Positions 1,880 through 19,081 of a DNA stretch of 19,081 bases are shown piece by piece. Position numbers and translations under genes: made by a program. This DNA comes from a virus (lineage: Duplodnaviria > Heunggongvirae > Uroviricota > Caudoviricetes). Under the pieces are notes generated by a model. That model saw only the letters and a list, made by a program, of their open reading frames with translations. It searched no databases and was not told the origin of the DNA. Position 1 is the stretch's first letter. Each line of letters starts with the position of its first letter. The DNA lies in IMG/VR virus record IMGVR_UViG_2585427764_000003, one strand, 5' to 3'.

Positions 1880-4800
1880 TCAACGAATACTGATGCCGGA
1901 AGCGGCTTTTTTGGTCACAATCACCGTACAGTCGGTGATATTGCCTGCCCCCTGATTGCCTTTCTGGAAAATCTTAAACTCCAGAGTGACGCTTCCCCTG
2001 CCACTCGGCATATCAATAACTGCACTGTAACTACCGGGAATGGCCCCTTTAGTTTCTCTGGATGCGATTAATACGCCGTTTTTGCGAACTTCAAAACCAT
2101 AACCCGTGTATCGCGTGCCTCCTGGGTTATTTCCGCTCCCCGGATCGTCATACGCTATACCGTTAAAAATAATGGGCGGAATAATAATCTGGCGGTCAAA
2201 GTTATGATCATCGCTGATGGTGACTGTAACCGTACCGTTTGGTGTTTCCGTGTTACCCCACGTACCGACTTTTTTCGGGAAGGCTTTTGATACAGCTTTA
2301 ACGAAATCTCCTCTGACCTGGGTCGCCTCCAGCATGCCCTTAATCGTACAGTTCTGGTTAATCGTGACATTGTTGAGCGTTCCTGAGTTCGCATTCACAC
2401 TGCCACTGATATCCGCATTTTTCGCCGTCAGTCTCCCGTCTGATGTCAGGGAAAATACCGGAGGACTGCCACCGCTGGTAATGGTGGGTGCCGTCAGGCG
2501 TTTCAGGAACACTTCATTCATGAATATCTGATCGCCCTGACCAACAAACATCGGCTTTGTGTTGCCATTCGCAGGATTAATCATCGCAATCCTGTCTGCT
2601 GCCAGCAGCACCTGACTCTGCATGCCGTCAGGGGTGTTCTCAATACTGGGGCCGATACCCGCGATATAATGTTTGCCGTCTTCGGTCTGCTCAATTTTGA
2701 CGCCCCACATGGCATTTTATTTATCGTTGGCGTCTTTCCACTCTTTCGATGACTCGTTTATTCTGCTGGCGTTATCCTCCGTCAGCTCGACTTTTTCCTG
2801 CCCACAGCTCCTGAGCCAGATGGGTTTTCCCTATCTCGCCTTTGAAAAAATCCAGATAGCCTGATGCATCATCACTCGGCTGACCGACAGCCTCCACGAA
2901 TGCCGATTTGCCAACGGTGTTCACACTGCGAACGTAAAAATAATAATCATGGCCCGGTTTGATATTGATACTGGCGGCTATCCAGTACAGTGCCGTACCA
3001 AGATAACGGGCTGTGGTTTCAACCTGCCTGATATCCGCAATCCGCTTTTCCGAGAACCAGAACTCAAACTGTACCGTCGGGTCATAAACGGCAAGATGCG
3101 GCGTGGCGGTTATCTGAAAATAGCCCGGCGTCAGCTCAATCCTCGACGGTGCTGCCGGTGCGGCAATCCGGAACGATACCGACGCCGGATCGCCCTGCTG
3201 CCCCCACGCATTTACCGCCCGGACTGTCAGCCTGTAGTTCCCCAGCGCCAGTTGCGTGAAGCGGTATGTGGTTTCCGTCGTCCGGGCCGTGCTGACCAGC
3301 CGCTCACTGCCGTCATCCGCTGTTACGGTCAGGCGGAGCATGAAGCTCACGCCCTTCACCACCTTCGGCGTGTCCCAGCGGGCCAGCACCTGATATTCCC
3401 CGCTGCCTGCGGTGACTTCGGCGGTCAGGTGCTGCACCGCTGGCGGCGTGACACCATTCACCGTGCCGCTCTGGTCGCCGTCAAAGTGCGCCCCGTTATC
3501 CACGATGGCTTCTTTTTCCGGTACATGCTGCACGGCAGTGATGGCATACGTGCCGTCATCGTTCTCACGGATACTCACACAGCGGAACAGGCGCTGGCGC
3601 AGCGTCGGCAGCTTAAGCCCCCACACGCTGTATTCAGCAACACCGTCAGGAACCCGGCTAACTTTTACCTTCACGCCGTCGGTGACGGACTGGACCTCCA
3701 CGCTGACCGGATTGCCACTTCCGTCAACCAGGCTTATTAGCGTGGTACCGGAGGATGGCAGCGTGATTTCACGGTCGAGCGTCAGCGTCCGGGTCTGGCT
3801 GTTCACAGCTAGCACGCGCCCGCCGATGCTGATCCCCGCATAGTCATCATCGCAGATTTCAATGACATCCCCCGGTACATGGCGAAGCCCTTCCGCACCC
3901 ACGCTGAAGTCCACGGTCTGCGTTTCCAGCAGTTCCGTTTTAATCAGCCACAGCCCGGCGCGGTGCGCCTGCCCCCGTCTGGTACAGCCAAAGGCATCCA
4001 TCTTCGTGACATTACGACCGTAACGGGCAATGGCCTGCGTATCTTCAACAAGCTCTGTCGCCGTCTCCCAGCCGTTGTTCGGGTCAATCCAGTTCACCTC
4101 AACGGCATTATGGCGGTCTTTCAGGGCGCTGAAACTGTAGCGGAACGGCGCGCCATCATCCGGCATCACCACATTACTGCGGTTATAGGCCCACACCTTA
4201 TCCGACGGTCGGTCCTGCACGAACGTCAGCGTCTGCCCGTTCCATACCGGCATACAGCGCATCGCCGAGCAGAAATCACTGAGCACATCCCACGCCTTGC
4301 GCTGTGTGGTCAGGTACGCATTACAGGTGATGCGCGGCTCCGTGCCGCCAAAGCCGTCCGGCACTGACTGGTCGCAGTACTGGCCGATGACATACAGCGC
4401 CCATTTATCCACATCCGCCGCACCAAGACGTTTTCCCATGCCGTAGCGCGGGTGGGTCAGCATATCCCACAGACACCAGGCCATGTTGTTGCTGTATGCT
4501 GGTTTTAACGTTCCGTCCCAGATACCACTGTATTGCCGCGTCTGCGGGTTATAGTTCGACGGCACCTGCAGAATGCGCCCGCGCAGATGATAATTACGGC
4601 TCACCTGCTGGCTGCCGAACTGCTCCGAGTCCACCTGCACGCCGATCAGTGCCGTGTTCGGGTAGCACTGTTTCACATCGATAATTTCGGTGTATGACGA
4701 CCAGAGCGTTTTGTTCTGCAGCTGGTCTGTGGTGCTGTCCGGCGTCATCCTGCGCATCCGGATATTAAACGGGCGCGGCGGCAGGTTATCCACCACCACC

Positions 4801-5297
4801 GAGGCCAGATACTGCGAGGTGGTTTTGCCCTTAATGGTGATGTCTTTTTCCGTCACCCAGCCACCATTACGCTGTATCTGAACCAGCAGGCGGACTTCCG
4901 ATGGATTCCTGTCCCCCTTTGAGGTGGTTTCCACCAGTGCCTGTACACCGAAGGTAAAGCGCAGACGGTCGATGTTTGCCGACGTGATGGTCCGGGTGAT
5001 CGGCGTGTCATATTTCACTTCTGTACCGAGCACCGTCTCGGAGCCGGAGGATTCAAATCCCTCCGGCGGTGTCTGCTCCTGCTCACCGGCCCGGAACACC
5101 ACCGTGACGCCGGATATATTGGTATTCCCCTCACTGTCCAGCACCGGCGTACTGTTCAGCAGCACGCTTTTTAATCCATCCACCGGACCTTCAACCGGCC
5201 CTTCGCTGATGGCATCGATCACACTCAGCAGCTGCGTGGACTTCAGGTTGTCCTTCGCTTCGCGCGGGGTATGCCCCTTACTGCTGCCTTTACCCAT
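1880..5297 (-). pseudogene. J: Tail tip/central fiber host-specificity protein J, disrupted; two ORF fragments 2772..5297 (841 aa, N-terminal) and 1880..2710 (276 aa, C-terminal)
   Basis: N-terminal ORF begins [24 protein letters not shown] (lambda J start). The two fragments are in different frames (top coordinate mod 3 = 2 vs 1). In the downstream frame the sequence reads ...[36 protein letters not shown] with TAA at 2717-2719. An apparent +4 nt insertion lies near 2799-2809. Confidence 0.8.
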
Positions 5298-6029: not shown

Positions 6030-6670
6030 TTGTCGGTGTACCTCTCTCGTTTACTCAGTTGTTCAGGAATATGGTGCAGCAGCTCACCGTCACCACAGTA
6101 AATGGCGGCATGATTCGGCACCGATGAACCAAAACAGCACAGCAGCACATCGCCCGGTTGTGCCGCTGACAACGGCACCTGATACAGCCCTGTGGCCTCC
6201 AGATTATCCAGATAGAGATTCTGACCGTGACGCCACCAGTCATCCTCGCGATGAAAATCCGGCATCTCAATCCCCGCCAGATGATAAGCATCCCGGAACA
6301 GTGTGTAACAGTCCGTCACACCGTGCTCAAAGCGCCGCCCGGTGAGATGCGGCACACAGCGGAACTTATGAATCGTCCCCCGGCAGACCAGCCACCACGG
6401 CAAATCACTCTGCACCTGCAGCCGCCGGTCAGCCTCACTCAGCCAGGGCAGACCACCGGGGTGGCTGTGGACCAGCGCCACAATCTCACCCTGCATTTCT
6501 GCCTGCAGCCAGTCTTCCGGCGACATACGGAAATACGCCTCCGGCTCACCGGAGATATTCACGCAGGGGAAATATCTTTCCCCCTCCGGCGTGCTTACCA
6601 CGAAGCCGCACGACTCCGCTGGCGCACATCGCCGGGCGTGCGCCAGAATCGCTGATTCTGTCTGTGTCAT
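5927..6670 (-). CDS. K: Tail tip assembly protein K (MPN/JAMM-like plus NlpC/P60-like region); start codon uncertain: full ORF 247 codons from 6670, classical 199-codon K would start at the internal Met at 6526
   Basis: ORF MTQTESAILAHARR...; JAMM-type motif HSHPGG...SEAD; C-terminal Cys/His-containing region. The 199-aa version corresponds to lambda K coordinates as recalled. Confidence 0.85.
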   Translation of the reverse strand: MTQTESAILAHARRCAPAESCGFVVSTPEGERYFPCVNISGEPEAYFRMSPEDWLQAEMQGEIVALVHSHPGGLPWLSEADRRLQVQSDLPWWLVCRGTIHKFRCVPHLTGRRFEHGVTDCYTLFRDAYHLAGIEMPDFHREDDWWRHGQNLYLDNLEATGLYQVPLSAAQPGDVLLCCFGSSVPNHAAIYCGDGELLHHIPEQLSKRERYTDKWQRRTHSLWRHREWHASAFTGICNDLAAASTFV

Positions 6671-11855: not shown

Positions 11856-12251
11856 TCACATTTCATAGGTAATGACATAAGTCAGATCGGCTGAACTCCA
11901 CAGGCCCGCATCATCGTCGCGCCGGTAGTCATAGCCACTGGCCACCATACTGGTGATCAAATCTGACAGTGCCGGGACATCGCTCATCACCGGATAAATC
12001 CGGGACTCCATCCACGAATCCAGCTCTGAATCCGGCACCTGAGCAGGCAGGAAAACTTCAATATGCAGCTCCGCCTGCCAGGTATCGCTGTCCAGCTCTT
12101 CGCCCGTGTATTCAGCGCCGGTGAGATAAACGGCAATTGCCGGAAAATCCGCCTCATCAAAAACAGCGGGGCGACCATCAAAAAGCGTCGCCCCGGTGTC
12201 ATGCTTCTCCAGTGCATCCAGTACGGCTGCACGGAGTTCAGTATGTTTCAT
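11856..12251 (-). CDS. U: Tail terminator protein U
   Basis: 131-aa [51 protein letters not shown]...; same length as lambda gpU. Confidence 0.92.
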
Positions 12252-12826
12252 CGCTTTATTACCATTCTCAGTTGATGCTGCAGCGCATAGCCCAGCTCTT
12301 TCGGAAGACGTTCACGCCGTATCCGCTCAATATTTTGTTTAAACGCCGTGGTCAGCGGCACCGCCATCGGGATTTTCACCACATCAATGGGGTAACGGTT
12401 TTTCCCGGCCACACGCTGCATGACATGCCACCGGCCATTTTTCAGTTGCTGAATAAACGCGCCGGGAATACGACGGTTACCCACCACAAGCACGCTGCCG
12501 CCACCTTTCAGGGATGAACGCTGCCCCTTTTTACGACGCCTGCGGCGCGAAAGGACAACCCGCGCATTACCCAGCTTGATTACGGGCAAATCCCCCCGGT
12601 TAACTTTGATTCTGGCCTGCGGATTTTTGACCGTGGCCCTTTTCAGCCTGGCCCTTTCCTTTACCAGTTTCCGGCGTACCTTTGTCTCACGGGCAACCTG
12701 TGACGCCGACTGCGATATCGCGGATGAAGCAACGCGGTTAATGGCCATTGCGGCGGCACCAGGCACCGCCGTTTTGCTGATACGGCTGAGGTTTTCAACG
12801 GCCTGCTCAAGACCTTTTATGGCCAT
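12248..12826 (-). CDS. Z: Tail completion protein Z
   Basis: 192-aa ORF MAIKGLEQAVENLSRISKTAVPGAAAMAINRVASS...; same length as lambda gpZ; ATGA overlap with U. Confidence 0.92.
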   Translation of the reverse strand: MAIKGLEQAVENLSRISKTAVPGAAAMAINRVASSAISQSASQVARETKVRRKLVKERARLKRATVKNPQARIKVNRGDLPVIKLGNARVVLSRRRRRKKGQRSSLKGGGSVLVVGNRRIPGAFIQQLKNGRWHVMQRVAGKNRYPIDVVKIPMAVPLTTAFKQNIERIRRERLPKELGYALQHQLRMVIKR

Positions 12827-12837
12827 ACATCCCCCTT

Positions 12838-13191
12838 TCAGCGGCGACGGTTAACGGCAGGCGGCACGCCACGCCCAAGCCAGAGATGACAGCTTCCGCC
12901 ATCATCCGGCGAAATCCGGTCCACCCAGAAGTTTTCCTCGCCGATGGTCAGTGTGTCTCCACGCCGCAGCTGCCGCACATCATCAGTCCGGACAAACAGG
13001 GACGGGCTGGAGCCTTCAACGCGCACCCCCTGTCCGGCATAGCTGATATTTTCAGGGTCATCAAAAACACCACGTATCACAGCACCGGACAGCTCACCGG
13101 ATGTCATGGTGGCTGACGTTCCCATGTACCCGCGTATCGTTTCATCGGCGCGGGCAATGGCAGCATCGAACAGGTTATCGGAATCAGCCAC
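12838..13191 (-). CDS. FII: Head-tail connector protein FII
   Basis: 117-aa ORF MADSDNLFDAAIARADETIRGYMGTSATMTSGE...GRGVPPAVNRRR; 11-nt gaps on both sides as in lambda. Confidence 0.92.
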   Translation of the reverse strand: MADSDNLFDAAIARADETIRGYMGTSATMTSGELSGAVIRGVFDDPENISYAGQGVRVEGSSPSLFVRTDDVRQLRRGDTLTIGEENFWVDRISPDDGGSCHLWLGRGVPPAVNRRR

Positions 13192-13639: not shown

Positions 13640-14665
13640 TTACGCCAGTTGTACGGACACGAACGCATCAGGGTCAGCCAGCAGCATCAGCGGTGCTGAC
13701 TGAATCATGGTGAACTCACGCGCCGGATCGCCGGTGGTCACCCAGTTTTTCGGGTAGCGGGCAGAGGCGTTAATACCTTCGCGCTGTGCGTCCGCATCCT
13801 GAATGCAGCCATAGGTGCGCAGACCGCGTGCCTGAGTGTTCCCCAGCACCATCGTGTTGTCCGGAAGGAAGTTCTTTTTGACGTCGTTTTCCACGTACTG
13901 TCCGGAATACACGACGATCGCCGTATCGCCATACATCCCCTTATAGGACACCGCTTCGCCCAGGTCTTTTACCGCTGTCTCCAGCTCGGAATTAGAGCCG
14001 CGACGGGTATCCAGCTTCTCCTTGACGGCTTTGAAGGAACGGAACAGCGCCCAGCCTTTCGGATCAAACACGATGATATTCACCACTCCGCTGGCGTTCA
14101 GCGCATAGGCTTCGATATCGTCGGTCGGGTCATACGTGGACTTGTCACGCTTGCTCCACTCCGTACCACCGGACTGTGTGATGTTGTTCGCCGCACTGCG
14201 GCCCATATCCACCTCAACCGGATCGAAGGCTTCACCGGTCATGGTGTATTTGCCCTTAAGCACAGCAGAAACTGCCTGCATCTCTTCGACCTGAGCAATG
14301 GCCAGCTCTTCGTCTCGCATGTTCTGCATGATGATGCGACGGCGGCGGTAAGCCGGGTCCGCCAGATTCTGCGGATCTTCATCCGGCAGGCGACGCAGGG
14401 TCATCTGCGGATTCACCTCATGCTTCGGCTTGACATATCCCGGTGTAAATTCAGAGGTGGAGCCGCCACGGGAGCGGATAACCTCACCGGAAACAATCGG
14501 CGAAACGTACAGCGCCATGTTTACCAGTCCCGGAATTTGTGAGAGATAGACTTTCTCCGTGGTGAAGGGATAGCTCTCACGGAAAAAGAGACGCAGAAAC
14601 AGCGGATCAAACTTAAATTTCTTCTCATTTGCCGCCAGCAGCTGGGCGGTTGTGTACATCGACAT
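13640..14665 (-). CDS. E: Major capsid protein E; own ATG at 14663-14665, but the reading frame is open upstream into C (no stop between C and E)
   Basis: 341 codons MSMYTTAQLLAANEKKFKFDPLFLRLFFRESYPFTTEKVYLSQIPG...DPDAFVSVQLA, near-identical to lambda gpE as recalled. Forms the 3' part of the 830-codon track ORF 13640..16132. Confidence 0.9.
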   Translation of the reverse strand: MSMYTTAQLLAANEKKFKFDPLFLRLFFRESYPFTTEKVYLSQIPGLVNMALYVSPIVSGEVIRSRGGSTSEFTPGYVKPKHEVNPQMTLRRLPDEDPQNLADPAYRRRRIIMQNMRDEELAIAQVEEMQAVSAVLKGKYTMTGEAFDPVEVDMGRSAANNITQSGGTEWSKRDKSTYDPTDDIEAYALNASGVVNIIVFDPKGWALFRSFKAVKEKLDTRRGSNSELETAVKDLGEAVSYKGMYGDTAIVVYSGQYVENDVKKNFLPDNTMVLGNTQARGLRTYGCIQDADAQREGINASARYPKNWVTTGDPAREFTMIQSAPLMLLADPDAFVSVQLA

Positions 14666-15977
14666 AAAAAAATCCCGTAAAAAAAAGCCGCACAGGCGGC
14701 CTTTAGTGATGAAGGATGCCGGGTTACCTGCAGCCAGCGGTGCCGGTGCCCCCTGCATCAGACGATCCAGCGCAGTGTCACTGCGCGCCTGTGCACTCTG
14801 TGGTGCAGCTGCCAGAATGCGGCGGGCCGTTTCCACGGTCATACCGGGGGTTTCTGCCAGCACGCGGGCCTGTTCTTCGCGTCCGTGAGCCTCCTCACAG
14901 TTGAGGATCCCCATAATGCGGCTGTTTTCTGCCGCAACCGCAGCGGTGATCTGCGCGTTCACGTCCGGCTGCGCCGCGCTGGCGTTTTCGCCCTCCGTCG
15001 CTGGCACCACGTCAGTAACGTCAGTCTGCGAAGCAGTGGCTGAAACAGTTGTTGATTGAGTCTCTTTGGTCATTCGCCCTCCTGAGAGACGGGATTTACG
15101 CGCATCCAGTGCATCACGCATGACGGTGATCGCATCGGTGCTGTTAACAAGTTCATCAGCCAGTCCGACATCAATGGCCTCCTGACCGCTGTACACTGCA
15201 GCCTCGGTATCCAGCACAGCCTGCACAGACAGGCCGGTATATGCCGACACCTTCTGCGCAAACATCTGGCGGGTTGCGTCCATCCGGGACTGCAGTGTCT
15301 CCCGGACGTCATCCGGAAGATGGCTGTAGGGATTGCCATCCACCTTATGGCTGCCGCTGTAAATCAGCGTGATTTCCACCCCCTGTTTCTCCAGGGCAGC
15401 ACCGTAATTACTGTGAGCCATCATGACGCCGATGGAGCCTGTCCGGGCGGTCTGCGTGACCAGACGCCGGGAGGCGGCACTGGCAAGCAGCTGACCTGCA
15501 CTGCAGTTCATGTCGTTGGCCAGCGCCCATACCGGTTTTATGTCTCGCACACGGGCGATGATGTCAGCGCAGTCAAATGCCCCCGCCACCATTCCGCCTG
15601 GCGTGTCCATATCGAGCAGAATGCCGTCCACCATCGGGTCGCTGGCAGCCTGTTGCAGACGGGCGATAATGCCGTTGTAACCGGTCATCCCCGAGTACGG
15701 CTGCAGCGCCCGCGTCCGGCTGACCAGCGTGCCGGACACCGGCAGCACGGCGATGCCGTTCATGACCTGATAACTGCGGGCCTGTCGTGGCCCGTCATCA
15801 TTACCGGATAACGCCAGCGTCGCGGGTGCCTCTCCGGCAGTCAGGCTGTCACCGGACACCGCATCCGTCAGGCGGCTGATCCCCAGCTGGCCTGCAAGCG
15901 CACAAAAGAAAACCCGCGCATAGGCGGGTTCAAGCATCAGCGGCTCATTAAAGGCCATACTGGCAATATGCGGGAGA

Positions 15978-15997
<20 letters not shown>
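14666..15997 (-). pseudogene. C: Head protease/minor capsid protein C with embedded scaffold Nu3, 3'-truncated (about 428 of 439 codons, no stop) and fused in frame to E through a 16-codon linker
   Basis: GTG start at 15995-15997 preceded by SD AGGAGG; 20-nt overlap with the B stop as in lambda; product VTAELRNLPHIASMAFNEPLMLEPAYARVFF...APLAAGNPAS then FITKGRLCGFFLRDFF then MSMY (E). The interval between C start and E start is 1332 nt here versus 1717 nt in lambda as recalled. Confidence 0.8.
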
Positions 15998-18594
<2,597 letters not shown>

Positions 18595-19081
18595 TTTAAA
18601 CCGTCTGGTCTGTTTCCTCCGGCTCTACAAAAATAATGTCCATCATTTTTAATGGACACTATCGTATGAAACACCGGACCTGGATCACTGAAGCTTTACG
18701 TCTTCACTTTGAAGAACATTTACCCCGGGTTGTGGCCGGGCGTCGCCTGGGTGTACCAAAATCAACAGTTTGTAGTATGTTCGTGCGCTTTCGGAGAGCT
18801 GGCCTTTCGTGGCCTTTGCCCGCAGGCATGTCGGAGCAGGAACTTGATGCCTGCCTTTACGGACAATTTTCCACGGTACCAGTCGTACGTCCTGAAAGCA
18901 CCGTTATATCCGAAGCCCCCGTGGTAAAAAAACGTCCCCGGCGGCCCAACTTCCCTTATGAGTTTAAAATCGCCTTAGTGGAGCAGTCACTGCAGCCCGG
19001 AGCCTGTGTGGCGCAGATCGCCCGGGAAAACGGAATCAACGATAACCTGCTCTTCAACTGGCGCCATCAATACCGGAAAGG
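18595..19081 (+). mobile_element. Partial insertion-sequence-like element (left end and start of transposase gene); continues beyond the window; family not determined
   Basis: Lambda homology on the minus strand stops at about 18590-18640; immediately beyond lies a plus-strand ORF with a transposase OrfA-type HTH signature. Exact terminus and inverted repeat could not be defined from the sequence alone. Confidence 0.55.
18666..19081 (+). CDS. Transposase OrfA-like HTH protein, N-terminal part (ORF open at window end)
   Basis: Frame from ATG 18666 is open to 19081: MKHRTWITEALRLHFEEHLPRVVAGRRLGVPKSTVCSMFVRF...KKRPRRPNFPYEFKIALVEQSLQPGACVAQIARENGINDNLLFNWRHQYRKG. The segment EFK..V..S..PG..V..IAR..G.....LF.WR.QY resembles IS3-family (IS2 InsC-like) and IS66-family TnpA HTH domains. 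Not in the ORF track because it has no stop in the window. Confidence 0.6.
   Translation, partial: MKHRTWITEALRLHFEEHLPRVVAGRRLGVPKSTVCSMFVRFRRAGLSWPLPAGMSEQELDACLYGQFSTVPVVRPESTVISEAPVVKKRPRRPNFPYEFKIALVEQSLQPGACVAQIARENGINDNLLFNWRHQYRK

Follow-up and report, generated by a model that had tools for sequence, protein, structure and literature searches.

Why does terminase gene A of this lambda-like prophage stop short near the right end of the window, and where is its 5′ part? The window (the whole stretch of DNA analyzed, 19,081 nt) ends in sequence that the initial annotation took for an insertion sequence (IS), marking either a simple insertion or an IS-mediated deletion of the prophage left arm. 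We show here what the IS is, exactly where it joins A, that it is flanked by a duplication of its target, and that an uninterrupted A can be reconstituted. Very probably, an ISCro1-like IS entered A by simple transposition with an 8-bp duplication, and the missing half of the gene is explained by a contig break. By this account, an IS66-family element of 2,699 bp would have transposed into A after nt 1121, with the IS genes pointing opposite to A. It would have duplicated 8 bp of target (A nt 1122–1129) and removed no DNA, and the other half of the locus would lie on a separate contig of the same assembly.

The minus-strand open reading frame (ORF) that contains the remnant of A (17778–18674, 298 aa) is made of two parts:

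17778–18582, minus strand: 3′ fragment of the terminase large-subunit gene A, comprising A nt 1122–1926, that is codons 375–641 (267 residues) and the stop.
18583–18674, minus strand: fortuitous read-through frame of 31 IS-derived codons up to a GTG at 18674; not part of a gene.

The 267 homologous residues bear out the earlier reading that likeness to lambda gpA is confined to the C-terminal ∼270. The codons upstream of 18582, into which the frame had been seen to run on without likeness to A, are IS sequence. Pfam model PF20454 (GpA_nuclease) matched the fragment with E = 1.4e-55, over profile positions 55–286 of 294 only. What remains is most of the nuclease domain; the ATPase domain and the first ∼53 residues of the nuclease domain are missing. 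(In a full-length gpA relative, the ATPase domain spans residues 47–285 and the nuclease domain 322–600.) As first described, nu1, cos and the ATPase domain are all absent from the window. Strain H8 has an intact A to which the fragment is 99.9% identical; over W plus the A fragment, H8 and the other closest intact relatives likewise reach 99.9%.

The junction was placed to the nucleotide. Three copies of the IS from unrelated contexts align with the window from G18583 onward (GTAACCGGCTCATTTAAACC) and diverge before it, and intact terminase genes of other strains align up to 18582 and no further. A boundary had been suspected at about 18590–18640; it exists, between 18582 and 18583, a few bases to the left of that interval. 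gpA is split inside its nuclease domain, at residue 374/375, and the prophage therefore cannot make a functional terminase. When the 298-aa ORF was looked up in protein records, none was on record.

On the other side of the junction, three features were recognized:

18583–19081, plus strand: left 499 nt of a 2,699-bp ISCro1-like IS66-family IS, ending at the contig end.
18583–18607, plus strand: left terminal inverted repeat (IRL), starting GTAA; 17 of 25 positions equal the reverse complement of the right end (GTAAGCGACTCG...).
18636–19081, plus strand: 5′ part of tnpA, encoding the IS66 accessory protein TnpA; 148 of 225 codons, with an alternative conserved start at ATG 18666.

The 499 nt show zero mismatches against complete copies in NZ_CP027312 (E. 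coli 2013C-3181) and in plasmid p1ColV5155. These reference copies are 2,699 bp long and carry tnpA (225 aa), tnpB (115 aa) and tnpC (523 aa). The window itself contains only the start of tnpA, and the three-gene order tnpA-tnpB-tnpC with a DDE_Tnp_IS66 transposase is established through these 499-nt-identical copies. In RefSeq (PGAP), copies identical to this one have a transposase named 'IS66-like element ISCro1 family transposase', from which we take the name ISCro1-like. Members of the IS66 family have terminal inverted repeats beginning 5′-GTAA. Here the repeats are imperfect, with IRL (GTAACCGGCTCATTTAAACCG) and the reverse complement of IRR (GTAAGCGACTCGTCAGAACCG) identical at the 17 positions given above. 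Duplications of 8 bp also flank six other copies of the IS. ISCro1 was first named in Citrobacter rodentium ICC168. In that strain it is an expanded IS66-family element with 24 copies (PMC3072379), and it has also been described in the afa promoter region of E. coli ST131 (PMC8764528). The order tnpA-tnpB-tnpC, the GTAA-initiated inverted repeats and the 8-bp duplications of ISCro1 agree with the element in the window, whereas length differs: 2,824 bp for the ISCro1 element of PMC8764528 and 2,699 bp for the copy measured here. Scanning of 18400–19081 for promoters revealed no sigma-70-like promoter.

The element had been thought perhaps to belong to a less common group. Among 5,426 complete E. 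coli genomes, 1,760 contain matches to the IS part alone; these occupy 5,442 places, chromosomal as well as plasmid-borne, and identical sequence occurs in contexts as unrelated as T6SS genes, gsp genes and ColV plasmids. The element is an ISCro1-like member of the IS66 family, already known and very common in E. coli, and the insertion itself is ordinary.

These matches also bear on a second reading of the boundary, in which the sequence upstream of 18582 would come from another lambdoid terminase or packaging module and the plus-strand ORF would be a phage gene. Lambdoid prophages are highly mosaic, and several rearrangements separate the window from its nearest relatives, as such a boundary would predict. 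Yet an IS identical over the 499 nt occurs in unrelated settings on chromosomes and plasmids, and the ORF, far from resembling a phage gene, passes a curated model for IS66 TnpA (NF038385; see below). Together, the identity across contexts and the NF038385 match refute a mosaic boundary, to which we assign practically no probability. Membership of the IS3 family (OrfA/OrfB) was also considered for this ORF and rejected, its scores with the IS3 and IS2 models being far below their cutoffs (27.7 bits versus 160 for transpos_IS3, NF033516, and 31.7 versus 229 for the IS2 repressor TnpA, PRK09413).

With NCBIfam model NF038385 (IS66_access_TnpA), the plus-strand ORF scored 212.9 bits (cutoff 150; E = 2.8e-63; residues 3–138). 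PGAP and the collection's gene caller both start tnpA at 18636, 10 codons before ATG 18666, while many 214-aa homologs begin at the position of that ATG. Over the part present in the window, TnpA does not differ from WP_001339397.1; clustered at 90% identity, this protein falls in a group of 2,424 sequences. The OrfA-type helix–turn–helix (HTH) that the initial annotation saw in the ORF running from 18666 to the window end corresponds to PF01527 (HTH_Tnp_1), at residues 92–137 numbered from ATG 18666. In a comparison of 24 homologs (52–90% identity), residues 14–61 (225-aa numbering) are strongly conserved and are followed by a variable linker and then by the conserved HTH_Tnp_1 block.

A second HTH-like segment had been proposed farther upstream. 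This segment, GRRLGVPKSTVCSMFVRFRRAG, sits inside the strongly conserved N-terminal block. Given the alignment of the 24 homologs, AlphaFold2 confidently modeled an N-terminal three-helix module with helices at 16–25, 31–38 and 42–54 plus a helix at 67–75 (pLDDT 83–91; 225-aa numbering), then a disordered linker, then a second three-helix module at residues 108–147 (pLDDT 82–86). The proposed segment coincides with helix 2, turn and helix 3 of the first predicted module. Pfam gave only sub-threshold HTH hits to this module (HTH_23, E = 0.061), and a Foldseek search of the TnpA model against the PDB returned no significant match (best E = 0.11), the top hits that were checked being HTH proteins. 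Thus, a second HTH in the N-terminal module is plausible and structurally supported, short of proof; such a module is standard in this TnpA subfamily.

The extension that carries this module is, as noted at the outset, longer than the N-terminus of IS2 or IS3 OrfA proteins. It had been read as a possible sign of a rare group, which does not follow: with NF038385 itself covering residues 3–138, a long N-terminal extension is the normal form of this TnpA subfamily. The protein shares the PF01527 HTH_Tnp_1 module with IS3/IS2 OrfA proteins and differs from them by its additional conserved N-terminal helical module. The element as a whole also differs from IS3/IS2, being a three-gene IS that lacks the IS3-type frameshift arrangement. 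By contrast, the protein itself belongs with the long-form NF038385 TnpA proteins, scoring above the curated cutoff with only 148 of its 225 codons in the window. Going by family annotation, TnpA would bind DNA in an accessory or regulatory role and have two HTH modules, TnpB would be an accessory protein and TnpC the DDE transposase.

Is the IS the true edge of the prophage, as the initial annotation supposed? The window corresponds exactly to one whole draft contig, JORX01000030.1 (19,081 bp; assembly GCA_000713415.1). What lies at its right end is a break in the assembly, within a repeat, and not a prophage edge; the window lacks the 5′ part of A because the contig stops there. The IS is probably multicopy in this genome, and the short-read assembler could not cross it.

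A simple insertion with an 8-bp duplication makes a specific prediction for the other side of the IS, namely a reciprocal junction product consisting of gpA residues 1–376 followed by 36 residues from the IS right end (412 aa). A first set of eight predicted 412-aa alleles gave one exact protein match, which belongs to a prophage lineage at att-lambda and not to this genome. A second set, built with the N-termini of the closest intact relatives (H8 and others), gave three more exact matches. One exact 412-aa match is encoded on JORX01000098.1 (5,513 bp), which belongs to the same assembly; this companion contig, with its right-hand junction, recurs in a sister assembly. In homology searches, a 109-aa chimeric query retrieved only short fragments and unrelated ORFs reading into the IS end, and the 412-aa query found no 412-aa cluster representative; P0123 shows the predicted junction.

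JORX01000098.1 carries, in order, an IS21 istB fragment, holin, lysozyme, Rz, a DUF1398 gene, the cos 12-mer GGGCGGCGACCT, nu1, A nt 1–1129 and the IS right end. The IS part comprises 350 nt with zero mismatches to the reference copy and encodes the C-terminus of the IS66 DDE transposase (PF03050, PF13817). The initial annotation had suggested looking beyond the window for the resumption of cos, nu1 and the 5′ end of A; all are here, joined to the IS right end.

The duplicated target is represented in the window by one copy:

18575–18582, no strand assigned: left copy of the 8-bp target-site duplication, reading CTTCAGCA on the plus strand and TGCTGAAG in the sense of gene A.

On JORX01000098.1, the same 8 bp, TGCTGAAG, directly precede the IS right end (L029 5156–5163). 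When the two parts of A were joined, minus one copy of the repeat, they gave a 1,926-nt ORF of 641 codons with zero internal stops, which differs from the intact A of strain H8 at 11 nt. The rejoined gene unites GpA_ATPase and GpA_nuclease in one protein of ∼641 residues; as it stands, the gene is disrupted. The first proposal, that an IS interrupts A, is thereby upheld, with its inverted repeats (GTAA, 17/25), DDE transposase and target-site duplication on both sides all present.

These findings can be set against a deletion next to the IS, or recombination between IS copies, that would have carried off the start of A together with nu1, cos and the remainder of the prophage, leaving the IS as the true prophage edge. 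Nothing beyond the IS is visible in the window itself, and such losses have precedents: in the att-lambda lineage, loci L006 and L007 as well as two complete genomes, ET881 and SW071610, lost DNA from within or next to the IS up to tail-fiber genes. But in the same assembly the IS right end is joined to A nt 1–1129, nu1 and cos and shows the matching duplication; an intact A results when the two halves are put together; and the window end is simply the contig end. We therefore consider a deletion very unlikely. Of the two origins first entertained for the IS at this place, simple insertion stands and deletion falls. In agreement, several complete genomes have the same IS simply inserted in gene A, neither half of which is lost.

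It might also be argued that the A/IS junction is a chimeric join made by the assembler, given a short-read draft contig that ends in a repeat. The exact 36-nt junction gave zero hits in GTDB species-representative genomes, and a junction search in 5,426 complete E. coli genomes gave two-piece hits only, which represent the IS elsewhere in A; the left junction is thus exactly present in neither collection. However, the junctions at two independent contig ends complement each other, fall at the same nucleotide and share an 8-bp duplication, which an artefact would not create, and the right-hand junction recurs in the sister assembly. A chimeric join is, we conclude, extremely improbable.

For the favored simple transposition, the linkage of JORX01000030.1 and JORX01000098.1, which are unjoined in the assembly, rests on their matching position, orientation and 8-bp repeat and on the exact reconstitution of A. 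We infer that the middle 1,850 nt of this IS copy are intact. Because this portion is unassembled at this locus, internal deletions are conceivable; such deletions are seen in locus L007.

At its other end (L029 1–439), JORX01000098.1 breaks off within an IS21-family istB that lies just upstream of the holin gene of the prophage. The late region of this prophage is therefore interrupted or bordered by a second IS.

Lesions are found elsewhere in the window as well. Portal gene B is split by a 1-nt indel (16592–16658) into a 306-aa N-terminal ORF (16658–17578) and a 204-aa C-terminal ORF (15978–16592), both on the minus strand; close relatives have an intact 533-aa portal. By comparison with relatives, a 385-bp deletion at ∼14715 has taken out the head-decoration gene D together with the final 12 codons of C. 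The protease/scaffold gene C is thereby fused in frame to the major capsid gene E, giving a minus-strand ORF at 13640–16132 (785–830 aa) with Peptidase_S49 and Phage_cap_E domains. Among the top-listed complete E. coli genome matches, none has the C–E deletion junction as a single piece, and all retain D. The tail-tip gene J (1880–5297, minus strand) is broken into ORFs of 841 aa and of 276 aa (tail-tip fiber and C-terminal receptor-binding domains), with a stop at ∼2772. An intact lom (Ail/Lom, 199 aa) follows J at 1210–1809. With A split by the IS, B frameshifted, D deleted with a C–E fusion, and J interrupted, the prophage is defective.

How often does this IS enter A? The same IS interrupts A in six other independent settings, with target repeats that start at A nt 354, 771, 975, 1033, 1299 and 1122. 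All seven insertions share one orientation, which is uninformative, as the searches could join pieces in that orientation only. Four of the settings are the E. coli strains 2013C-3181, 98232, ATCC 43896 and ETEC 120899, which resemble the present case in IS, orientation, 8-bp duplication and retention of both A halves, and differ from it in position (A nt 354, 771, 975 and 1299). Another came to light when a 264-aa version of the minus-strand ORF was looked up. It lies in ERR1681728 (Logan; L003 1–120), where a prophage 99.8% identical to the window over 14715–18582 has the same IS in the same orientation, with the target starting at A nt 1033. This insertion is 89 nt further upstream in A than that of the window, and D is present; it is another independent insertion.

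Position 1122 is common only to this genome and the att-lambda lineage (loci L006, L007, L008–L016 and L018/L019, the last two from ET881 and SW071610). The cryptic prophage of that lineage has the order ybhC, int′ rusA quuD porin lysis nohD A′::IS ... tfa dgcX ybhB bioA. On its contig L007, both IS junctions are preserved, with TGCTGAGG on both sides (3909–3916 and 6081–6088), and the A fragment differs from that of the window by 2.2% (8/363 nt). Each lineage has its own base in both copies of the repeat, giving TGCTGAAG in this genome and TGCTGAGG in the att-lambda lineage. Since the lineage-specific base is in both copies, two independent insertions are more parsimonious than one ancestral event, and the repeat sequences suggest that A nt 1122 was probably hit independently in the att-lambda lineage.

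At least three different, nested deletions have eroded the IS of the att-lambda lineage and the DNA at its left-end side. These join IS remnants or the 363-nt A fragment to tail-fiber or tail-fiber-assembly genes (L006 4485–4558; L018 ∼12121–12909; L007, which lacks IS positions 149–315 and 2042–2407). IS-associated deletions thus do occur at this site in other strains. Separately, many E. coli proteins (e.g. P0179–P0224, 601 aa) fuse ∼350 N-terminal residues of gpA, including the ATPase domain, to a tail-fiber collar domain (PF07484), which suggests that a deletion joining A to tail-fiber genes may be widespread in other cryptic prophages.

Does the double hit at nt 1122 reveal a preferred target? 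By our own estimate, one coincident pair among seven events, with uniform choice in A, has a chance of ∼1% (21 pairs/1,926 positions). Yet even a modest sequence preference of the IS would make the coincidence unremarkable. The left flanks of many unrelated IS copies (L020–L023, L001, L002 and window 18572–18582), into which BLAST alignments extend ∼10 nt beyond the IS end, share a loose ..TTAGC/..CAGCA-like motif, and several duplications within gene A read nnnTGAnn in the sense of A. These hint at a weak target preference. That the ∼10-nt likeness reflects a longer IS end was considered and rejected, since the flanks show no more than a weak ..AGC-like bias. A nucleotide-level hot spot for ISCro1-like elements in lambdoid gene A (nt 1122–1129, in two alleles ∼2% apart) is conceivable on these data, and we propose it tentatively, with more doubt than belief.

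The finding matters little beyond annotation. A gene cut at a window edge beside an IS in a draft assembly is first of all a contig break, and the missing half is recoverable by predicting the reciprocal junction product. To our knowledge, target choice in the IS66 family is poorly defined, and the same-site double hit offers a small lead on it. If the hot spot is real, then together with the five further independent insertions in A it would suggest that this IS family prefers certain targets, by sequence or by structure. It could also reflect recurrent selection for terminase knock-outs during prophage domestication.
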